Source of the DNA: Escherichia coli
Lineage (GTDB): Bacteria > Pseudomonadota > Gammaproteobacteria > Enterobacterales > Enterobacteriaceae
Direction: 5' to 3' (one strand)
Assembly: GCF_041886205.1 (NCBI RefSeq)
Contig: NZ_CP169029.1
Length of the DNA: 64,000 nucleotides
The notes below the pieces were generated by a model. It was given only the letters and a program-made list of their open reading frames with translations. It ran no database searches and was not told the origin of the DNA. Positions 3,884 through 39,880 of this stretch are shown here, in pieces. The translations under genes and the position numbers were made by a program. How positions within the stretch are numbered: position 1 is the first letter of the stretch; every line of letters begins with the position of its first letter.

Positions 3884-4940
3884 GGCTTTGTTGAATAAAT
3901 CGAACTTTTGCTGAGTTGAAGGATCAGATCACGTATCTTCCCGACAACGCAGACCGTTCCGTGGCAAAGCAAAAGTTCAAAATCACCAACTGGCCCACCT
4001 ACAATAAAGCCCTCATCAACCGTGGCTCCATAACTTTCTGGCTGGATGATGAAGCTATTCAGGCCTGGTATGAGTCAGCAACACCTTCTTCACGAGGCAG
4101 ACCTCAGCGCTATTCTGACCTTGCCATCACGACTGTGCTGGTCATTAAACGCGTATTCAGGCTGACCCTGCGCGCTGCGCAGGGCTTTATTGATTCCATT
4201 TTTTCTCTGATGAACGTTCCGCTACGCTGCCCGGATTACAGCTGTGTCAGCAGGCGGGCAAAGTCGGTTAATGTCAGTTTCAAAACGCCCACCCGGGGTG
4301 AAATCGCACACCTGGTAATTGATTCCACCGGGCTGAAGGTCTTCGGTGAAGGCGAGTGGAAAGTCAAAAAGCATGGCCAGGAACGCCGCCGTATCTGGCG
4401 TAAGCTGCATCTCGCCGTTGACAGTAAAACACATGAAATCATCTGCGCTGACCTGTCGCTGAACAACGTTACGGACTCAGAGGCCTTCCCCGGGTTAATC
4501 CGGCAAACCCACCGGAAAATCAGGTCAGCCGCCGCCGATGGCGCTTACGATACCCGGCTATGTCACGATGAACTGCGGCGTAAGAAAATCAGCGCGCTTA
4601 TCCCTCCCCGAAAAGGTGCGGGTTACTGGCCCGGTGAATATGCAGACCGTAACCGTGCAGTGGCTAATCAGCGAATGACCGGGAGTAATGCGCGGTGGAA
4701 ATGGACAACAGATTACAACCGTCGCTCGATAGCGGAAACGGCGATGTACCGGGTAAAACAGCTGTTCGGGGGTTCACTGACGCTGCGTGACTACGATGGT
4801 CAGGTTGCAGAGGCTATGGCCCTGGTACGAGCGCTGAACAAAATGACGAAAGCAGGTATGCCTGAAAGCGTGCGTATTGCCTGAAAACACAACCCGCTAC
4901 GGGGGAGACTTACCCGAAATCTGATTTATTCAACAAAGCC
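3884..4940 (+). mobile_element. IS903-group insertion sequence (IS5 family), 1057 bp, 18-bp terminal inverted repeats GGCTTTGTTGAATAAATC
   Basis: Terminal IRs read at 3884-3901 and 4923-4940 (reverse complement); single transposase ORF; 9-bp TSD. Confidence 0.9.
3961..4884 (+). CDS. IS903-type DDE transposase (307 aa from GTG start; track ORF starts at upstream ATG 3916)
   Basis: Protein VAKQKFKITNWPTYNKALINRGS... recognised as IS903/IS102-like transposase. Confidence 0.85.
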   Translation: MAKQKFKITNWPTYNKALINRGSITFWLDDEAIQAWYESATPSSRGRPQRYSDLAITTVLVIKRVFRLTLRAAQGFIDSIFSLMNVPLRCPDYSCVSRRAKSVNVSFKTPTRGEIAHLVIDSTGLKVFGEGEWKVKKHGQERRRIWRKLHLAVDSKTHEIICADLSLNNVTDSEAFPGLIRQTHRKIRSAAADGAYDTRLCHDELRRKKISALIPPRKGAGYWPGEYADRNRAVANQRMTGSNARWKWTTDYNRRSIAETAMYRVKQLFGGSLTLRDYDGQVAEAMALVRALNKMTKAGMPESVRIA

Positions 4941-6043: not shown

Positions 6044-6775
6044 GTGGCTTATTACAGCATTGGTGATGTTGCTGAACGTTGCGGGATTAATCCTGTCACT
6101 CTCCGGGCCTGGCAACGCCGCTACGGTTTGTTAAAACCACAGCGCAGTGAAGGCGGACACCGACTCTTTGATGAAGAAGACATACAACGTATCGAAGAGA
6201 TCAAGCGTTGGATAAGTAATGGCGTCCCTGTAGGCAAAGTTAAAGCATTACTGGAAACCACCAGCCAGGATACGGAAGATGACTGGAGCCGCCTGCAAGA
6301 AGAGATGATGTCAATTCTTCGTATGGCTAATCCTGCCAAACTACGCGCAAGAATTATTTCACTGGGTCGAGAGTACCCAGTAGATCAATTGATTAATCAT
6401 GTTTACCTTCCTGTTCGCCAGCGTCTCGTGCTTGATCACAACACCTCCCGCATTATGAGCAGTATGTTTGACGGCGCATTAATTGAATATGCAGCAGCCT
6501 CGCTTTTCGAAATGCGCCGTAAGCCCGGTAAAGAAGCCATTCTGATGGCGTGGAATGTTGAAGAGAGAGCACGATTGTGGCTGGAAGCATGGCGTTTATC
6601 ATTGTCAGGATGGCACATTTCTGTTCTTGCTGATCCCATTGAATCGCCGCGCCCGGAACTGTTCCCGACGCAAACATTGATTGTCTGGACAGGCATGGCA
6701 CCAACAAGAAGGCAAAACGAACTTTTACAACATTGGGGTGAGCAAGGTTATAAAGTCATCTTTCATGCCCCCTAA
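6044..6775 (+). CDS. bluR: MerR-family repressor BluR (YcgE)
   Basis: 243-aa ORF with N-terminal MerR HTH ([27 protein letters not shown]); synteny. Confidence 0.85.
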
Positions 6776-6994
6776 TTTCACCTTTATCCCGCCCCTTAGA
6801 CAGAATGTTATAATCTGAACCCACAACAGCGTTTGTACCGGAGCTGGTCCGTTGCAAAATGCTCACCGGACAATTCAGGTAATCCCCCTTTCACACTTTG
6901 TACATATCACAGCCAAAGGACAGACCAGATTGAAGTGGTAAAACCGATCGTGCACACTACGCAGTCTCACAACTAACAAGAGGTTATTATCCTG

Positions 6995-7399
6995 ATGGAT
7001 CAGGTCGTTGTTTTTCAAAAGATGTTTGAGCAAGTGAGAAAAGAGCAAAACTTCTCCTGGTTTTATTCAGAATTAAAACATCACCGTATTGCACATTACA
7101 TTTATTATCTGGCTACGGATAACATCAGAATTATTACTCACGATGACACGGTTTTGTTATTAAGAGGAACCAGAAACCTGTTAAAAGTTAGTACGACCAA
7201 GAACCCTGCTAAAATAAAAGAGGCCGCATTGCTTCATATTTGCGGAAAATCTACATTTCGGGAATACTGCTCAACACTGGCAGGCGCGGGCGTTTTCCGT
7301 TGGGTTACTGATGTTAATCATAACAAACGCAGTTACTACGCCATTGATAATACGCTTTTATATATTGAAGATGTAGAAAATAATAAACCATTAATCTAG
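6995..7399 (+). CDS. ycgX: YcgX (DUF1398 family) protein
   Basis: 134-aa ORF; synteny. Confidence 0.7.
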   Translation: MDQVVVFQKMFEQVRKEQNFSWFYSELKHHRIAHYIYYLATDNIRIITHDDTVLLLRGTRNLLKVSTTKNPAKIKEAALLHICGKSTFREYCSTLAGAGVFRWVTDVNHNKRSYYAIDNTLLYIEDVENNKPLI

Positions 7400-7605
7400 C
7401 TAAAGTTGGATGCTTAAGAAATGCTTCATAATTCAGTAAGGCATTAGCATAATGGGAATAAAAGTGCAGAGACCATTCCTATGGTTCTAATACTGCCTTT
7501 TTATTGCCGCCCATAGATGTTCAGTACACCAATACTATAAAATTGATATTGAAATGTACTCCCTTGCTTATTGATACATTATTTTATACGGTTAGTTTGC
7601 TTTTA

Positions 7606-7805: not shown

Positions 7806-8024
7806 AAAGTGGCACAAAGTAGCATAAAGGCTATGCTTTAATTACAGAAGGTTCAGTCATTTAAATGTATATCGTTTTATCTAAACAGAACTAAAACGAA
7901 GTGAATGATTTCACTTTTCCACTAAATCTCATTTTGTTTAATCTCTGTTGAGATTCCTTGCTTTAAATTTTGTTTTATAAAACAGTAGCTTTATTTTTTA
8001 ATTGATTTTTAGGTAATATAAAAA

Positions 8025-8279
8025 ATGCAAAATCAAGAAATGAATATCCAAATTAAACTATACGCTTATTTAAATAAATATGACACTCGCCTTACAGAAG
8101 AAAAAATTGCGATTGATAAAGCTATTAGAGAATTACATTTTAGCAGCGAGCATGTTGATAACAAAAAAATAATACTGAAGTTACTTTCATTTTTATCATA
8201 TACAGATGATGTTGTTGAAAAAGACATTATCAGAAATACATTGGAAGTGGTTCTTCTTTTTACTTCCGATGATATTTAA
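8025..8279 (+). CDS. AriR/YmgB-family paralogue (84 aa)
   Basis: C-terminal half KIILKLLSFLSYTDDVVEKDIIRNTLEVVLLFTSDDI parallels Ari[39 protein letters not shown] in this same window. Confidence 0.6.
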   Translation: MQNQEMNIQIKLYAYLNKYDTRLTEEKIAIDKAIRELHFSSEHVDNKKIILKLLSFLSYTDDVVEKDIIRNTLEVVLLFTSDDI

Positions 8280-8522
8280 TTGGATTCACTAACTTTATTA
8301 TCAAAATTATTGTCCGAACACTACCTTTCTTACTTATGTTTAATAATAATCACTGCGAATGAGGGGCGCACAACTATATTTTTCTCACACCTGTGATGTA
8401 AAAACACGAGAAAATCCAAATAAAGAACAACATTTGCAATTCCCACCAGATGGATTGCATCACACTTTATTATTCAAAATATTTATCAGCATCATTAAAA
8501 GCCGAAGGATAAGACAAAACAA

Positions 8523-8846
8523 ATGAAGTGGATAGTAATTGACACGGTAATTCAACCTACATGTGGTATATCTTTTTCAGCCATATGGGGTGATATGAAA
8601 ATGATCATCTGGTATCAATCTACTATATTTCTCCCTCCTGGTAGTATATTTAAACCGGTTAAATCTGGTATTATCCTTAAAGATAAAGAATATCCTATTA
8701 CTATTTATAACATCGCACCATTCAACAAGGATTTATGGAGTCTACTCAAAAGCAATCAAGAGTGTCCTCCAGGAGAAAGCAAAATAACAAATAAATGTTT
8801 GCATAATAGTTGCATTATAAAAATATGCCCATATGGGCTCAAGTAA
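8523..8846 (+). CDS. iraM: IraM anti-adaptor protein (RpoS stabiliser)
   Basis: 107-aa [26 protein letters not shown]...; position next to icd. Confidence 0.8.
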
Positions 8847-8896
8847 AGGGTTTAATATAAATATGCTCGATATGCTATTAATAATACCTACATAAA

Positions 8897-8924
8897 TAAA
8901 ACAACGGGCGTGTTATACGCCCGT
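8897..8924 (-). terminator. icd intrinsic terminator (hairpin AACGGGCG...CGCCCGTT followed by a U-rich tract on minus strand)
   Basis: Seen in sequence 25 bp downstream of icd stop. Confidence 0.65.
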
Positions 8925-8948
8925 TGCAATATTAAACACATGTAGTGA

Positions 8949-10199
8949 TTACATGTTCTTGATGATCGCATCACCAAATTCTGAACATTTCAGCAGTTTA
9001 GCGCCTTCCATCAGACGTTCGAAGTCATAGGTTACGGTCTTGGCGTTGATTGCGCCTTCCATACCTTTAACAATCAGGTCTGCGGCTTCAATCCAGCCCA
9101 TGTGGCGCAGCATCATCTCAGCAGAGAGGATGATAGAGCCAGGGTTTACTTTGTCCTGACCGGCATATTTCGGCGCAGTACCGTGGGTGGCTTCAAACAG
9201 GGCGCATTCGTCACCGATGTTTGCGCCAGGGGCGATACCAATACCACCAACCTGCGCTGCCAGGGCGTCAGAAATGTAGTCACCGTTCAGGTTCATACAG
9301 GCGATAACATCATATTCAGCCGGACGCAGCAGGATCTGTTGCAGGAACGCATCAGCGATCACGTCTTTAATGACGATCTCTTTGCCGGTATTCGGGTTTT
9401 TAACTTTCAGCCACGGGCCGCCGTCGATCAGTTCTCCGCCAAACTCTTCACGCGCCAGCTGGTAGCCCCAGTCTTTAAACGCGCCTTCGGTGAACTTCAT
9501 GATGTTGCCTTTGTGCACCAGGGTCACAGAGTCACGATCGTTAGCAATTGCGTATTCGATCGCTGCACGAACCAGACGTTTGGTGCCTTCTTCCGAACAC
9601 GGCTTAATACCGATACCGCAATGTTCCGGGAAGCGAATTTTCTTCACGCCCATCTCTTCACGCAGGAATTTAATCACTTTCTCGGCGTCGGCAGAGTCAG
9701 CTTTCCATTCGATACCCGCATAAATGTCTTCCGAGTTTTCACGGAAGATAACCATATCGGTCAGTTCAGGGTGTTTAACCGGGCTTGGAGTGCCCTGATA
9801 GTAACGTACCGGACGCAGGCAGATGTAGAGATCCAGTTCCTGACGCAGGGCAACGTTGAGAGAACGAATACCGCCACCAACCGGAGTGGTCAGCGGGCCT
9901 TTAATGGCAACGCGATATTCACGAATCAGATCAAGGGTTTCAGCAGGCAGCCAGACATCCTGACCATAAACCTGTGTGGATTTTTCACCGGTGTAAATTT
10001 CCATCCAGGAGATTTTACGCTCGCCTTTATAGGCTTTCTCGACTGCAGCGTCGACCACTTTCAGCATGGCTGGGGTTACATCTACACCGATTCCATCACC
10101 TTCAATGTAAGGGATAATCGGATTTTCAGGAACGTTGAGTTTGCCGTTTTGCAGGGTGATCTTCTTGCCTTGTGCCGGAACAACTACTTTACTTTCCAT
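8949..10199 (-). CDS. icd: Isocitrate dehydrogenase (NADP), native C-terminus with no e14 junction
   Basis: 416-aa [41 protein letters not shown]... Confidence 0.97.
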
Positions 10200-10659
10200 T
10201 CACCTCTCCTTCGAGCGCTACTGGTTTGCTCGTCTGCCACCACGTTGCATATGCGTTTGCGTCCTGCGATACGGATGCTTTAGAGCAATTTTTGTTAATG
10301 ATTTGTAATTGGCTTGTCAATACTACCCTATTGTTTGCCGTCATGAAAGATGCGCGTTATTAGGCTATAATGCGGCAATTCATAATCTGTGAAAATACCA
10401 TGCAAAAAACTTCTTTTAGACCAAAGACAGTATTTTTCAGACCTTCAAATAAGGTATTAAATATCAATAATTTACACCAGATTTTAAGCAATAAAAAAAA
10501 CCACCAGAGATAACTAACAGGGTGCTATTTGGTCAAAATTTGACATTACTCGATTCAGCGACTAACTCACTTTGAGCACTATTGGGAAAATTATCAAAAG
10601 TCATGGTTGAAGCGACAAGCAACGAGTAAATTATGGCATCCACCCTTTTTGAGGTTCAC

Positions 10660-10752
10660 ATGAAACGCTTTGCACTGATAGCTGTGACACTCGTTGCCTT
10701 TACTGGTTCTAGTTCTGCATCTGCTGCAACCGAAGAAATCAACTTCAAGTAA
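10660..10752 (+). other. 30-codon mini-ORF encoding a signal-peptide-like sequence (MKRFALIAVTLVAFTGSSSASAATEEINFK), in frame with the downstream 149-aa ORF but separated by TAA and TGA stops
   Basis: GAGG 5 nt upstream of ATG; frame relationship counted from coordinates (10786-10660 = 126). Confidence 0.4.
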
Positions 10753-10785
10753 CAGAAACACTATATAACAATGAAGTGTTGAAAA

Positions 10786-11235
10786 ATGGATACTACCGAA
10801 GAACGCAATGGAACATATTTCTACAGAGGACACCCGAACCTGTCCAAAATAGAACTACTCAACGTCATATTCCTTGAAGAATTCTGTAAGGAATTGGGGA
10901 TTGATTCGGTATCAGGTGCAGCAATCTTATCTGGTCAACCTTGGCTGGGTACAAGAGCGAAGCCGCAAGGGGCAACCCTGGGAACAAGTGTTGTCTCAAA
11001 GTATGCGCGTATACTGATGAGAGATGCACGCATGCCTTTTGGTATTTCTGTTCATACACCAGTGGGGGTAAGGATGCAGAAATCTAATAAGCTTGCTGCA
11101 ATTATCGCTCGTTGGGTCCCGTGGATTGGTTGGGCTTCACTGTCGATGAGTCTTTACAGGGTTTCGACTCGTACCCAGGAAAAATACAATCTGATTGCCA
11201 AACCTCAAGACCGTATTAAGTGGACTTCCTTCTAA
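10786..11235 (+). CDS. Hypothetical protein (149 aa), hydrophobic C-terminal segment; possible remnant of a secreted protein or toxin
   Basis: Track ORF; no convincing RBS of its own; stop overlaps start of next ORF (TAATG). Confidence 0.45.
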   Translation: MDTTEERNGTYFYRGHPNLSKIELLNVIFLEEFCKELGIDSVSGAAILSGQPWLGTRAKPQGATLGTSVVSKYARILMRDARMPFGISVHTPVGVRMQKSNKLAAIIARWVPWIGWASLSMSLYRVSTRTQEKYNLIAKPQDRIKWTSF

Positions 11236-11570
11236 TGGCGACAACAATCACAGACGAAGTTTTAGCACTGTTCCGTGATGAGATTCCAGGTTATCAGGAT
11301 GACCACGGGAAGGAAATTCCGTTAGAACTGGACTCTGATTTGTTCGACTATCCACGAGATGATATAGAGGACGCTATACGGAAATACAAAGAGAGGTTTG
11401 GGATTAACCTGGATAATCTGGACTGGTCTTTGTACCTTCCGTGGGAGTCTGCACCATTGCTTCAACGATGGTTCAAGCTCAAGCGGGAAGAGGTAGAAAC
11501 AACACGTTTACCGTTAACTGTACGGATGTTTGCAGAATCAGCAGAAGCGGGAAAATGGCTGTATCAGTAG
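11235..11570 (+). CDS. Hypothetical small acidic protein (111 aa from ATG in TAATG overlap; track gives GTG start at 11220)
   Basis: Track ORF; translationally coupled to upstream ORF; hairpin and T-rich tract just downstream. Confidence 0.5.
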   Translation: MATTITDEVLALFRDEIPGYQDDHGKEIPLELDSDLFDYPRDDIEDAIRKYKERFGINLDNLDWSLYLPWESAPLLQRWFKLKREEVETTRLPLTVRMFAESAEAGKWLYQ

Positions 11571-11890
11571 AATAAAAAAGAAGGCTGCGATGCCCTTCTT
11601 ATTACTGCTGATGATGGTAGTGGTAAAGCATCATCCTGAACTTGAACAGTGAAGTGCTGTCACCCATCAGTAATACAGAAACACTATTTTTCATACCAGT
11701 ATTTATTCAATTCATCAATGTAAAATGTGTTCATTGGGCCATATTTATCACCATGCAGCCACACAACCGCTGCTCACTAACCCAGGTATTGATGAAACCG
11801 CGCTGAAGAGCCTGAACCCTGAACCTCTAATGAGTACCTTCAAAGTCCAATGCAATCCGACACTGTGCTACCCTCTGCGTATAGCTCTAT

Positions 11891-23222: not shown

Positions 23223-24013
23223 TCGGTCGACTGCTTCGCGGCGGTTTTATGACCGCTATCTACGCGTACCTGTATATCCCAATCATTATTTTGATTGTGA
23301 ACTCCTTTAACAGCTCGCGCTTTGGCATCAACTGGCAGGGTTTTACCACCAAATGGTATAGCCTGCTGATGAACAACGACAGCCTGTTACAGGCAGCGCA
23401 GCATTCACTAACAATGGCGGTGTTTTCGGCAACATTTGCTACGCTTATCGGTTCACTGACGGCAGTTGCGCTGTACCGTTATCGCTTTCGTGGTAAGCCG
23501 TTCGTTAGCGGAATGCTGTTTGTGGTGATGATGTCACCAGATATCGTGATGGCGATTTCGCTGCTGGTACTGTTTATGCTGCTGGGAATTCAGCTTGGCT
23601 TCTGGTCGCTGCTGTTCTCTCATATCACCTTCTGCCTGCCATTTGTGGTGGTGACGGTGTATTCGCGCCTGAAAGGTTTTGACGTGCGGATGCTGGAAGC
23701 GGCGAAAGATCTCGGTGCCAGCGAATTTACCATTCTGCGAAAAATCATACTGCCACTGGCAATGCCAGCGGTGGCGGCGGGCTGGGTGTTAAGCTTTACC
23801 CTGTCGATGGACGATGTGGTAGTTTCTTCGTTCGTCACCGGACCAAGTTATGAAATTCTGCCGTTAAAAATTTATTCGATGGTCAAAGTCGGCGTATCGC
23901 CGGAAGTTAACGCGCTGGCAACCATATTACTGGTGCTGTCGCTGGTGATGGTTATTGCCAGTCAGCTTATTGCTCGTGATAAAACGAAAGGTAACACAGG
24001 GGACGTTAAATGA
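23219..24013 (+). CDS. potC: Spermidine/putrescine ABC permease PotC
   Basis: ORF; 4-bp overlap with potB. Confidence 0.93.
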   Translation: MIGRLLRGGFMTAIYAYLYIPIIILIVNSFNSSRFGINWQGFTTKWYSLLMNNDSLLQAAQHSLTMAVFSATFATLIGSLTAVALYRYRFRGKPFVSGMLFVVMMSPDIVMAISLLVLFMLLGIQLGFWSLLFSHITFCLPFVVVTVYSRLKGFDVRMLEAAKDLGASEFTILRKIILPLAMPAVAAGWVLSFTLSMDDVVVSSFVTGPSYEILPLKIYSMVKVGVSPEVNALATILLVLSLVMVIASQLIARDKTKGNTGDVK

Positions 24014-25056
24014 AAAAATGGTCACGCCACCTGCTCGCGGCGGGTGCTCTGGCACTGGGCATGAGCGCCGCTCACGCCGATGACAACAACACGCTGTATT
24101 TCTACAACTGGACCGAGTACGTGCCGCCAGGACTGCTTGAACAGTTCACCAAAGAAACCGGTATTAAGGTTATCTATTCGACTTACGAGTCGAACGAAAC
24201 CATGTACGCCAAGCTGAAAACGTACAAAGACGGTGCGTATGACCTGGTGGTTCCTTCAACCTATTACGTCGATAAAATGCGTAAAGAAGGGATGATCCAG
24301 AAGATCGACAAGTCGAAGTTAACGAACTTCAGCAATCTCGATCCAGACATGCTCAACAAGCCTTTTGACCCGAATAACGACTACTCCATTCCGTATATCT
24401 GGGGTGCGACGGCGATTGGTGTTAACGGTGATGCGGTGGATCCGAAATCTGTCACCAGCTGGGCCGATCTGTGGAAGCCAGAGTACAAAGGCAGCCTGCT
24501 GTTGACCGACGATGCCCGTGAAGTGTTCCAGATGGCGCTGCGTAAGCTGGGCTATTCCGGTAACACCACCGATCCGAAAGAGATTGAAGCTGCATATAAC
24601 GAGCTGAAAAAACTGATGCCAAACGTCGCAGCGTTTAACTCCGATAACCCGGCTAACCCGTACATGGAAGGCGAAGTTAACCTCGGCATGATCTGGAACG
24701 GTTCTGCTTTCGTTGCACGCCAAGCGGGTACGCCTATTGACGTGGTGTGGCCGAAAGAAGGCGGCATATTCTGGATGGACAGCCTGGCGATCCCGGCAAA
24801 TGCCAAAAACAAAGAAGGCGCGCTGAAATTGATCAACTTCCTGCTGCGCCCGGATGTGGCAAAACAGGTTGCTGAAACTATCGGTTATCCAACGCCAAAC
24901 CTTGCGGCGCGTAAGCTGTTAAGCCCGGAAGTGGCGAACGATAAAACGCTCTACCCGGATGCTGAAACCATTAAAAATGGTGAATGGCAGAATGACGTTG
25001 GCGCAGCCAGCAGCATTTATGAAGAGTATTATCAGAAGCTGAAAGCAGGACGTTAA
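24010..25056 (+). CDS. potD: Periplasmic spermidine/putrescine-binding protein PotD
   Basis: 348-aa ORF with signal peptide. Confidence 0.95.
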   Translation: MKKWSRHLLAAGALALGMSAAHADDNNTLYFYNWTEYVPPGLLEQFTKETGIKVIYSTYESNETMYAKLKTYKDGAYDLVVPSTYYVDKMRKEGMIQKIDKSKLTNFSNLDPDMLNKPFDPNNDYSIPYIWGATAIGVNGDAVDPKSVTSWADLWKPEYKGSLLLTDDAREVFQMALRKLGYSGNTTDPKEIEAAYNELKKLMPNVAAFNSDNPANPYMEGEVNLGMIWNGSAFVARQAGTPIDVVWPKEGGIFWMDSLAIPANAKNKEGALKLINFLLRPDVAKQVAETIGYPTPNLAARKLLSPEVANDKTLYPDAETIKNGEWQNDVGAASSIYEEYYQKLKAGR

Positions 25057-25063
25057 TTCAGCA

Positions 25064-25095
25064 AGCGGGCGGTGGTATTACCGCCCGTTTTTTAT
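25064..25095 (+). terminator. potD intrinsic terminator (GGGCGGT...ACCGCCC followed by T7)
   Basis: Seen in sequence. Confidence 0.7.
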
Positions 25096-25170
25096 TTAGC
25101 AAGGATGTGGCTAATGAGTCAGGACAGTAAAGTTTTATCCCGCTCTTTCGTCGGTATTGTGGTCCCCTTG

Positions 25171-25200
25171 TAGGCCTGATAAGCGTAGCGCATCAGGCAA
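25171..25200. repeat. REP (repetitive extragenic palindrome) unit GCCTGATAAGCGTAGCGCATCAGGC
   Basis: Canonical REP sequence. Confidence 0.8.
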
Positions 25201-25211
25201 TGCTTCCTGCT

Positions 25212-26033
25212 TTATAAGCCCTTCAGCAACTTTTCAACAAATTCTGGCACCACCTGACTTGCCGGGCCGTAATATTTCTCGGCAAATTCATTACCGACCT
25301 GACTTGGTTCGAGATTCAGTTCCACGGTGTGCGCGCCATGCAGTTTCGCTTCGTGAACAAACCCAGCCGCCGGATAAACATGCCCGGAAGTACCAATGGC
25401 AATGAAAATATCGGCCATCGACAACGCCATATAAATTTCATCCATGCCGAGCGGCATCTCACCAAACCATACTACGTGTGGACGTAGCGGTGCCGGGAAC
25501 TGGCAGCAATGGCATTTATCTTCTGGGGTAACGTCTCCGGTCCAGTCGAGAACCTGACCACTTTGTGAACAACGAACTTTCAGCAGTTCCCCATGCATAT
25601 GAATGACATTGGTATTACCTGCGCGTTCATGCAGGTTGTCTATATTCTGCGTCACCAGCAAAAAGCGATCGCCGAGAGCATCTTGCAGTTTAGCCAGCGC
25701 AAGATGCGCGGCGTTAGGCTGAATTTCTGGCTGCTGCAGCTGTCGACGACGGGCGTTATAAAACGCTTGCACCAGTTCAGGATCGCGATCGAAACCTTCC
25801 GGCGTTGCCACATCTTCAACCCGATGTTCTTCCCACAGGCCATCTGCGGCGCGAAAGGTACGAATACCTGATTCCGCAGAAATTCCTGCCCCTGTCAGTA
25901 CGAGTACTCTTGGTTTTTCCATTGCTTCCGGCACCACTTTATCTCTGAAAAAAATACGCTGACGCAAACGCTCGCGCAGGCGGCGTTTATTTTTACGAAA
26001 ACGACTTAACCGATGACCCCGACGCGACAGCAT
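25212..26033 (-). CDS. cobB: NAD-dependent protein deacylase CobB (sirtuin)
   Basis: 273-aa ORF. Confidence 0.93.
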
Positions 26034-39755: not shown

Positions 39756-39880
39756 GTAGGCCTGATAAGAGGCGCATCAGGCATTGATGCTCGACTGTCG
39801 GATGCGGCGTAAACGCCTTATCCGACTTACAGAATTCGGAGCGCATCAGGTACCGGCAAGGTTACCTGATGCGACGAGGG
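39756..39880. repeat. Cluster of REP units (BIME)
   Basis: Repeated GCCTGAT..ATCAGGC-type palindromes. Confidence 0.75.

Follow-up and report, generated by a model that had tools for sequence, protein, structure and literature searches.

Does the short spacer between the convergent genes potD and cobB in the Escherichia coli genome analyzed here result from the loss of ymfA and ycfZ, the two genes that occupy this site in K-12, or has this lineage never possessed them? The stretch under study (hereinafter the window) consists of 64,000 nucleotides of an E. coli chromosome (NZ_CP169029.1) and is collinear (~99% identity) with the genome of strain LHM10-1, in which the annotated collinear genes run from ymgF through icd, phoPQ, potABCD, cobB, lolCDE and fabHDG to rne. 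The convergent orientation of potD and cobB and the gap of 155 bp (positions 25057-25211), both given in a preliminary description of this region, are borne out by the open reading frames (ORFs) of the window. The K-12 gene order given in that description, with the caveat that ymfA and ycfZ might lie elsewhere, is correct as well: the order in MG1655 is cobB (b1120)-ycfZ (b1121)-ymfA (b1122)-potD (b1123), with ymfA and ycfZ on the potD strand, and the arrangement in BL21 is the same, potD-ymfA-ycfZ-><-cobB. The comparisons described below lead us to conclude, with high confidence, that the 155-bp gap was left by one old deletion event, which removed ~1.29 kb.

Table 1. Features of the potD-cobB region, in window coordinates
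Feature	Position	Strand	Basis or remarks
potD, last gene of potABCD, intact	24010-25056	+	ORF; potD annotation in the collinear strain LHM10-1
potD rho-independent terminator-like hairpin followed by a T-run	25063-25096	+	12-bp stem, 4-nt loop
Remnant: potD-ymfA spacer and 5' end of ymfA	25097-25157	+	blastn/tblastn against intact alleles
Deletion junction, TGTG (4 nt), assignable to neither flank	25158-25161		Homology ends at 25157 and restarts at 25162
Part of the ycfZ-cobB spacer next to cobB, including a single REP	25162-25211		100% identity to positions 4889-4938 of the strain 3R locus
cobB, Sir2-family deacetylase, intact, convergent with potD	25212-26033	-	ORF; annotation in the collinear strain LHM10-1

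At its potD end, the gap contains a hairpin (25063-25090) whose stem includes 7 G-C pairs and which is followed by a TTTTTTATTT tail that extends to position 25100; with this G+C-rich hairpin and T-run located just past the stop codon, the segment is a likely rho-independent terminator. The same terminator-like sequence is common to the deletion alleles and the intact alleles and precedes ymfA in K-12, BL21, 3R and other species of Escherichia. At the cobB end, there is a single REP unit (approximately 25166-25200, with the core GCCTGATAAGCGTAGCGCATCAGGC at 25174-25198), an extragenic, multi-copy, imperfect palindrome of ~35 nt. The 33-nt stretch of this REP alone is found at a median of 9 places per genome in E. 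coli genomes, and a related copy is present elsewhere in the window (39756-39786). A search of the gap for known RNAs yielded only a weak match of the REP to the Rfam family naRNA4, below the gathering score, which we read as REP-derived.

According to the preliminary description, these two elements, the potD terminator and one REP, are all that the gap holds; both indeed are present, but a third component, a remnant of the 5' end of ymfA, was overlooked. The segment 25091-25157 corresponds to the potD-ymfA spacer, the start codon of ymfA (25114) and the first ~15 codons of this gene, so that the window retains the ymfA ribosome-binding region, the ATG and the codons for MSQDSKVLSRSFVGI.... 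In a blastn comparison, positions 25057-25157 are 94% identical to the DNA of strain 3R, and tblastn with YmfA as the query aligns residues 1-15 with positions 25114-25158 and nothing else in the window. The absence of the rest of ymfA and of ycfZ from the gap, as originally proposed, is confirmed by these searches: neither tblastn nor blastn of the window finds anything past the ymfA stub, and the YcfZ query has no significant match in the window (best E=0.074, located elsewhere). Given that the DUF3592 domain of YmfA spans residues ~40-112 of 153 whereas the window keeps residues 1-15, no part of this domain is encoded, and the window contains no ORF for a TPM-domain protein of the YcfZ kind. 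The frame that starts at 25114 comprises 19 codons, MSQDSKVLSRSFVGIVVPL*, and is closed by a TAG at 25171-25173, within the REP flank; this stub ORF probably is a decaying remnant.

That the stub is a piece of a real gene follows from the conservation of the YmfA N-terminus in homologues from Phytobacter that are only 55-59% identical to YmfA (MQQDAKVFRRIF... compared with MSQDSKVF/LxRxF in Escherichia). The remnant belongs to the ymfA type found in strain 3R and E. albertii (…KVLSR…), not to the K-12 type (…KVFFR…); the ancestor in which the deletion occurred carried a ymfA-ycfZ haplotype of this '3R/albertii' type. The extent of the loss follows from alignment with intact alleles: the match to the window continues as far as 25157 and resumes at 25162, and in the alignment with the intact 3R allele, 1,287 bp are skipped between these two positions. 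The missing DNA includes ymfA from approximately codon 16 on, the entire ycfZ gene and ~88 bp at the ycfZ end of the spacer between ycfZ and cobB. In intact alleles, this spacer contains two REPs, of which the ycfZ-proximal one was deleted along with the genes, whereas the potD terminator, the ribosome-binding site, start and ~15 codons of ymfA, the other REP and cobB have been kept. Because the 5' remnant of ymfA is present, the state of the window is the result of a deletion in a lineage that once possessed the genes. Hence, of the two options left open in the preliminary description, a clean deletion or a failure to acquire the genes, the latter does not hold for this lineage and the former is supported, although the deletion was not quite clean in that it left the ymfA stub behind and removed one REP.

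The short allele is not confined to the strain studied. Among 5,426 complete E. coli genomes, 576 (10.6%) match a 1,155-bp query consisting of potD, the gap and cobB in one piece, and 4,850 contain internal ymfA-ycfZ DNA; since the two sets are exactly complementary (4,850 + 576 = 5,426), none of the genomes with the short allele contains ymfA-ycfZ at another location. A 48-nt probe that spans the junction is found in 555 genomes, once in each, with coverage of at least 96%, and never matches an intact allele. The breakpoint sequence, ...CGGTATTGTGGTCC(C/G)C..., is the same in the window, in the aligned carriers and in the genomes matched by the 48-mer, including EDL933. Among the carriers are O157:H7 EDL933 and EC4115, O145 RM12367, ATCC 8739 and O9:H10 strains, and the junction, together with the diagnostic 48-mer, could be of use for typing or for tracing lineages. 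Only part of the ymfA-ycfZ DNA is present in 23 genomes. In JSMCR1 (NZ_CP030152.1), a different, independent partial deletion is observed, in which the last ~165 nt of ycfZ adjoin potD.

The case for a single origin rests on the junction and the remnant. None of the seven other carriers examined differs from the window in the junction, although the flanks differ by up to 5-8%. The junction, the length of the gap and three substitutions in the remnant (CGCT, TTCGTC and TATTG) are the same in D7, O157:H7 GTVSS-023, EDL933, LR14 and 2013C-4282, in which the 1,155-bp potD-cobB match is 95.6-99.3% identical to the window. The three substitutions are common to the deletion alleles and absent from every intact allele examined, and the exact sequence of the remnant is carried by no sampled intact allele. 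The same junction and the same remnant substitutions are found in Escherichia sp. E1V33, which is classified as a separate species in GTDB and aligns with the window without gaps over 7.3 kb, with an identity of 95.1% overall and of only 92-93% over the 900 bp that surround the junction.

In neighbor-joining trees of the two 800-bp flanks, the deletion alleles are not monophyletic on either side, and the flanks are mosaic. Mosaic flanks neither prove nor disprove a single origin, which was judged instead from the junction and the substitutions in the remnant. As the deletion alleles do not group together in the flank trees, the allele appears to be old and to have been moved or re-flanked by recombination; a single origin, accordingly, also requires either recombination or long-standing polymorphism. 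The spread of the allele may have occurred by vertical descent, homologous recombination or both, which would account for its presence in backgrounds as divergent as O157:H7, O145, ATCC 8739, the strain studied here and Escherichia sp. E1V33. Over the 3' end of potD, the spacer and the 3' end of cobB (24357-25911), E. coli genomes differ by 2-6%, in a mosaic pattern that depends on the flank; nucleotide divergence in this range is high for comparisons within a species.

The alternative that survives these observations best is that the same junction was generated several times at a hotspot, either REP-associated or driven by microhomology. The scatter of the deletion alleles in the flank trees, across backgrounds that are 2-8% apart, would fit this explanation, as would the existence of another, different partial deletion, with the 3' end of ycfZ beside potD (JSMCR1), and the location of the right breakpoint 8-12 nt from the retained REP, a proximity that may or may not be relevant to the mechanism. 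Repeated deletion, however, would have to yield the identical junction bases, TGTG, in every one of the seven other carriers and to strike each time an allele with the three remnant substitutions that are seen in no intact allele examined; moreover, the junction 48-mer never matches intact DNA, and a microhomology of 2-5 nt is too weak to force the same outcome. We consider recurrent deletion very improbable, and a single deletion event remains the preferred explanation.

The same remnant bears on the second alternative, namely that the lineage of the window never had ymfA-ycfZ and that K-12-like strains gained these genes by insertion at the point that corresponds to 25157/25162. DNA downstream of potD was compared across 80 loci (up to 4 kb each, less where a contig ends sooner) in a sample that does not include E. 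fergusonii, E. marmotae and E. ruysiae. In 38 of the 63 species with both genes in view, the potD-cobB gap is shorter than 120 bp and contains hairpins or REP-like palindromes only; these taxa include Salmonella arizonae and most Citrobacter, as well as Enterobacter and Lelliottia. For 17 species, the DNA retrieved downstream of potD (at most 4 kb) contained no identifiable cobB. Among the sampled loci, ymfA-ycfZ occupy this position in Escherichia and two of the three Phytobacter species and nowhere else: P. massiliensis and P. diazotrophicus encode homologues with 50-59% amino-acid identity between potD and cobB, and P. ursingii has neither gene and a gap of 68 bp. The Phytobacter pattern is explained either by an independent insertion at the same site or by an old presence followed by many losses.

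This widespread tight arrangement is what gives the scenario of ancestral absence its appeal, but it does not fit the contents of the gap in the window. The start codon and ~15 codons of ymfA are homologous to the conserved N-terminus of YmfA, and an insertion would have had to land in frame within a pre-existing 'gene head'. Sequences homologous to the 71-nt remnant region (25091-25161) are limited to the five Escherichia loci; the region lacks any counterpart in the potD-downstream DNA and potD-cobB spacers of the 75 non-Escherichia species of Enterobacteriaceae. Four of the five retrieved Escherichia loci have ymfA at this site, and three of these, in the E. coli representative, E. albertii and E. 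whittamii, also have ycfZ (in the fourth, MOD1-EC7003, the contig ends within ymfA). Taken together, the conserved N-terminus, the restriction of the remnant to Escherichia and the presence of ymfA in four of the five Escherichia loci indicate that the short spacer of the window is secondary. Ancestral absence is thereby effectively refuted and, in our estimate, is marginally less probable still than recurrent deletion. A third possibility, that the genes were collapsed or lost in assembly or through sequencing error, can be dismissed given that 576 independent complete genomes, EDL933, EC4115 and ATCC 8739 among them, share this 155-bp gap.

Given that potD and cobB are directly adjacent in most other Enterobacteriaceae, ymfA-ycfZ represent an insertion that was later lost in some lineages, and the allele of the window, produced by a single deletion, is a later, partial reversal of the insertion of ymfA-ycfZ into an ancestrally tight junction. 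Other genes also are found at this position. Some loci of Enterobacter and Lelliottia contain a 409-aa ORF, either alone or next to one of 645 aa, and Raoultella terrigena and Enterobacter sp. 10-1 have an ORF of ~545 aa. In Kosakonia pseudosacchari, there are three ORFs (228, 253 and 448 aa), and small ORFs of 100-170 aa also occur at the site. As a guess from their sequences, this cargo (0.4-3.5 kb) could include an EAL protein, alone or accompanied by a 645-aa signaling protein, an acyl-CoA-synthetase-like protein, a two-component system and small membrane proteins. The spacer between convergent potD and cobB is thus a recurrent landing site for unrelated cargo genes across the Enterobacteriaceae.

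As to how the deletion arose, the breakpoints were found to be free of IS elements, att sites, long direct repeats and foreign DNA, and a deletion mediated by an IS element or a prophage was rejected on account of a junction that lacks IS, att site and long repeats. The sequences that flank the two breakpoints share only 2-5 nt (AT/ATTG(C)), and the TGTG at the junction exactly matches neither flank. Because there is only this microhomology and neither an IS element nor a long repeat, illegitimate recombination, of the microhomology or slippage type, would be the most likely route. The junction does not pin down the exact breakpoint or the mechanism. The deletion would have deprived the strain of two membrane proteins, a DUF3592 protein and a TPM-domain protein, and no effect on potABCD or cobB would be expected.

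The intact YmfA protein (153 aa) belongs to the DUF3592 family (PF12158), and intact YcfZ (262 aa) contains a TPM domain (TPM_phosphatase, PF04536); neither protein matches any PADLOC defense model at E<=0.01. The dN/dS ratio of ymfA between haplogroups is 0.16-0.2, with dS of ~0.9, a signature of purifying selection, which indicates that a real gene was lost. Two membrane proteins under purifying selection (dN/dS ~0.2) nevertheless appear to be dispensable in nature. Frameshifts were called by PGAP in ymfA of BL21 (positions 4058-4518 of the locus) and in ycfZ of strain 3R (positions 4016-4800); as signs of dispensability these are anecdotal and may reflect sequencing error. In BL21, an IS1 is inserted in nagK, beside cobB (positions 6277-7601 of the locus).

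At least two intact haplogroups of ymfA coexist within E. coli, with 74% amino-acid identity to each other and the above-mentioned dS of ~0.9; one of these is closest to the gene of E. albertii (dS 0.29) and the other to that of E. whittamii (dS 0.07). For the same pair of strains, dS of potD is 0.09, so that the locus harbors deeply diverged haplogroups beside a null allele; the divergence between the ymfA haplogroups exceeds even that of potD between E. coli and E. albertii (dS ~0.5). The age of the null allele and its sharing across species, beside two highly divergent intact haplogroups, appear mildly unusual. It is conceivable, albeit unlikely in our judgment, that the potD-cobB site is an ancient trans-species polymorphism maintained by balancing selection, with at least two ymfA-ycfZ haplogroups and one null allele of single origin. 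If true, this would replace simple neutral loss with balancing or frequency-dependent selection, such as pressure from phages, colicins or the host on envelope proteins.

Elsewhere in the window, the surroundings of icd also are variable. The gene (8849-10099, minus strand) is directly followed by iraM, a gene of the YmgB/AriR family, ycgX and bluR (approximately 7900-10100). K-12 carries the e14 prophage beside icd; in the annotation of the window, there are no prophage genes at this position, and e14 appears to be absent. On the other side, the icd-rluE spacer (10100-11802) contains an insert of two genes that encode an STM2901-family protein and a DUF1493 protein (ORFs at approximately 10686-11470). 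This insert is present in 374 of the 5,426 complete E. coli genomes; the others match the first 321 nt of the spacer only, with icd and rluE adjacent.

The variability of ymfA and ycfZ in E. coli is not new. The gene b1121/ycfZ, labeled 'homologous to virulence factor', belongs to the standard probe set of E. coli virulence arrays and is present or absent depending on the strain group (PMC2749873; PMC3091784), YmfA and YcfZ are among the membrane proteins that differ between strain groups (PMC10304320), and YmfA was reported in 359 of ~524 genomes in a pangenome study (PMC8788219). In the sections of three of these sources that treat the two genes, presence or absence only is reported, and the junction, the ymfA stub, the single origin and the outgroup state are not described (PMC2749873; PMC3091784; PMC10304320). 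The absence of ymfA-ycfZ from EDL933 is, furthermore, visible in the reference annotation. Because b1121/ycfZ is known to vary and the EDL933 annotation lacks the genes, the polymorphism was already known, and the absence of ymfA-ycfZ is an ordinary difference in accessory genes that sets ~10% of E. coli, among them the O157:H7 reference strains, apart from K-12. In itself, the finding matters little; of modest value are the precise junction with its diagnostic 48-mer, the evidence for the dispensability of two membrane proteins under purifying selection and the recurrent use of the potD-cobB spacer as a landing site.

The closest counterpart of the window is the arrangement in EDL933, and likewise in EC4115, ATCC 8739 and O145 RM12367, with the same 155-bp gap, the same junction, the same ymfA stub and a single REP. 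In genomes of the EDL933 type, ymfA and ycfZ are absent genome-wide, as in the 576 carriers in general; the differences from the window amount to ~2% in the flanks and one SNP in the junction-proximal flank of the REP (CCCC vs CCGC). K-12 MG1655 shares with the window the flanking genes, the potD terminator and the cobB-proximal REP but, unlike the window, has intact ymfA (153 aa) and ycfZ (262 aa) and a second REP, and its ymfA belongs to a haplogroup at dS of ~0.9 from the one from which the remnant of the window derives. Superficially, the window resembles Salmonella, Citrobacter, Enterobacter and Lelliottia, in which potD and cobB also are convergent and are separated by spacers of 32-120 bp with a hairpin or REP-like palindromes. 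However, the spacers of these other Enterobacteriaceae are primary and contain no ymfA remnant, whereas the short spacer of the window is secondary and was produced by deletion.
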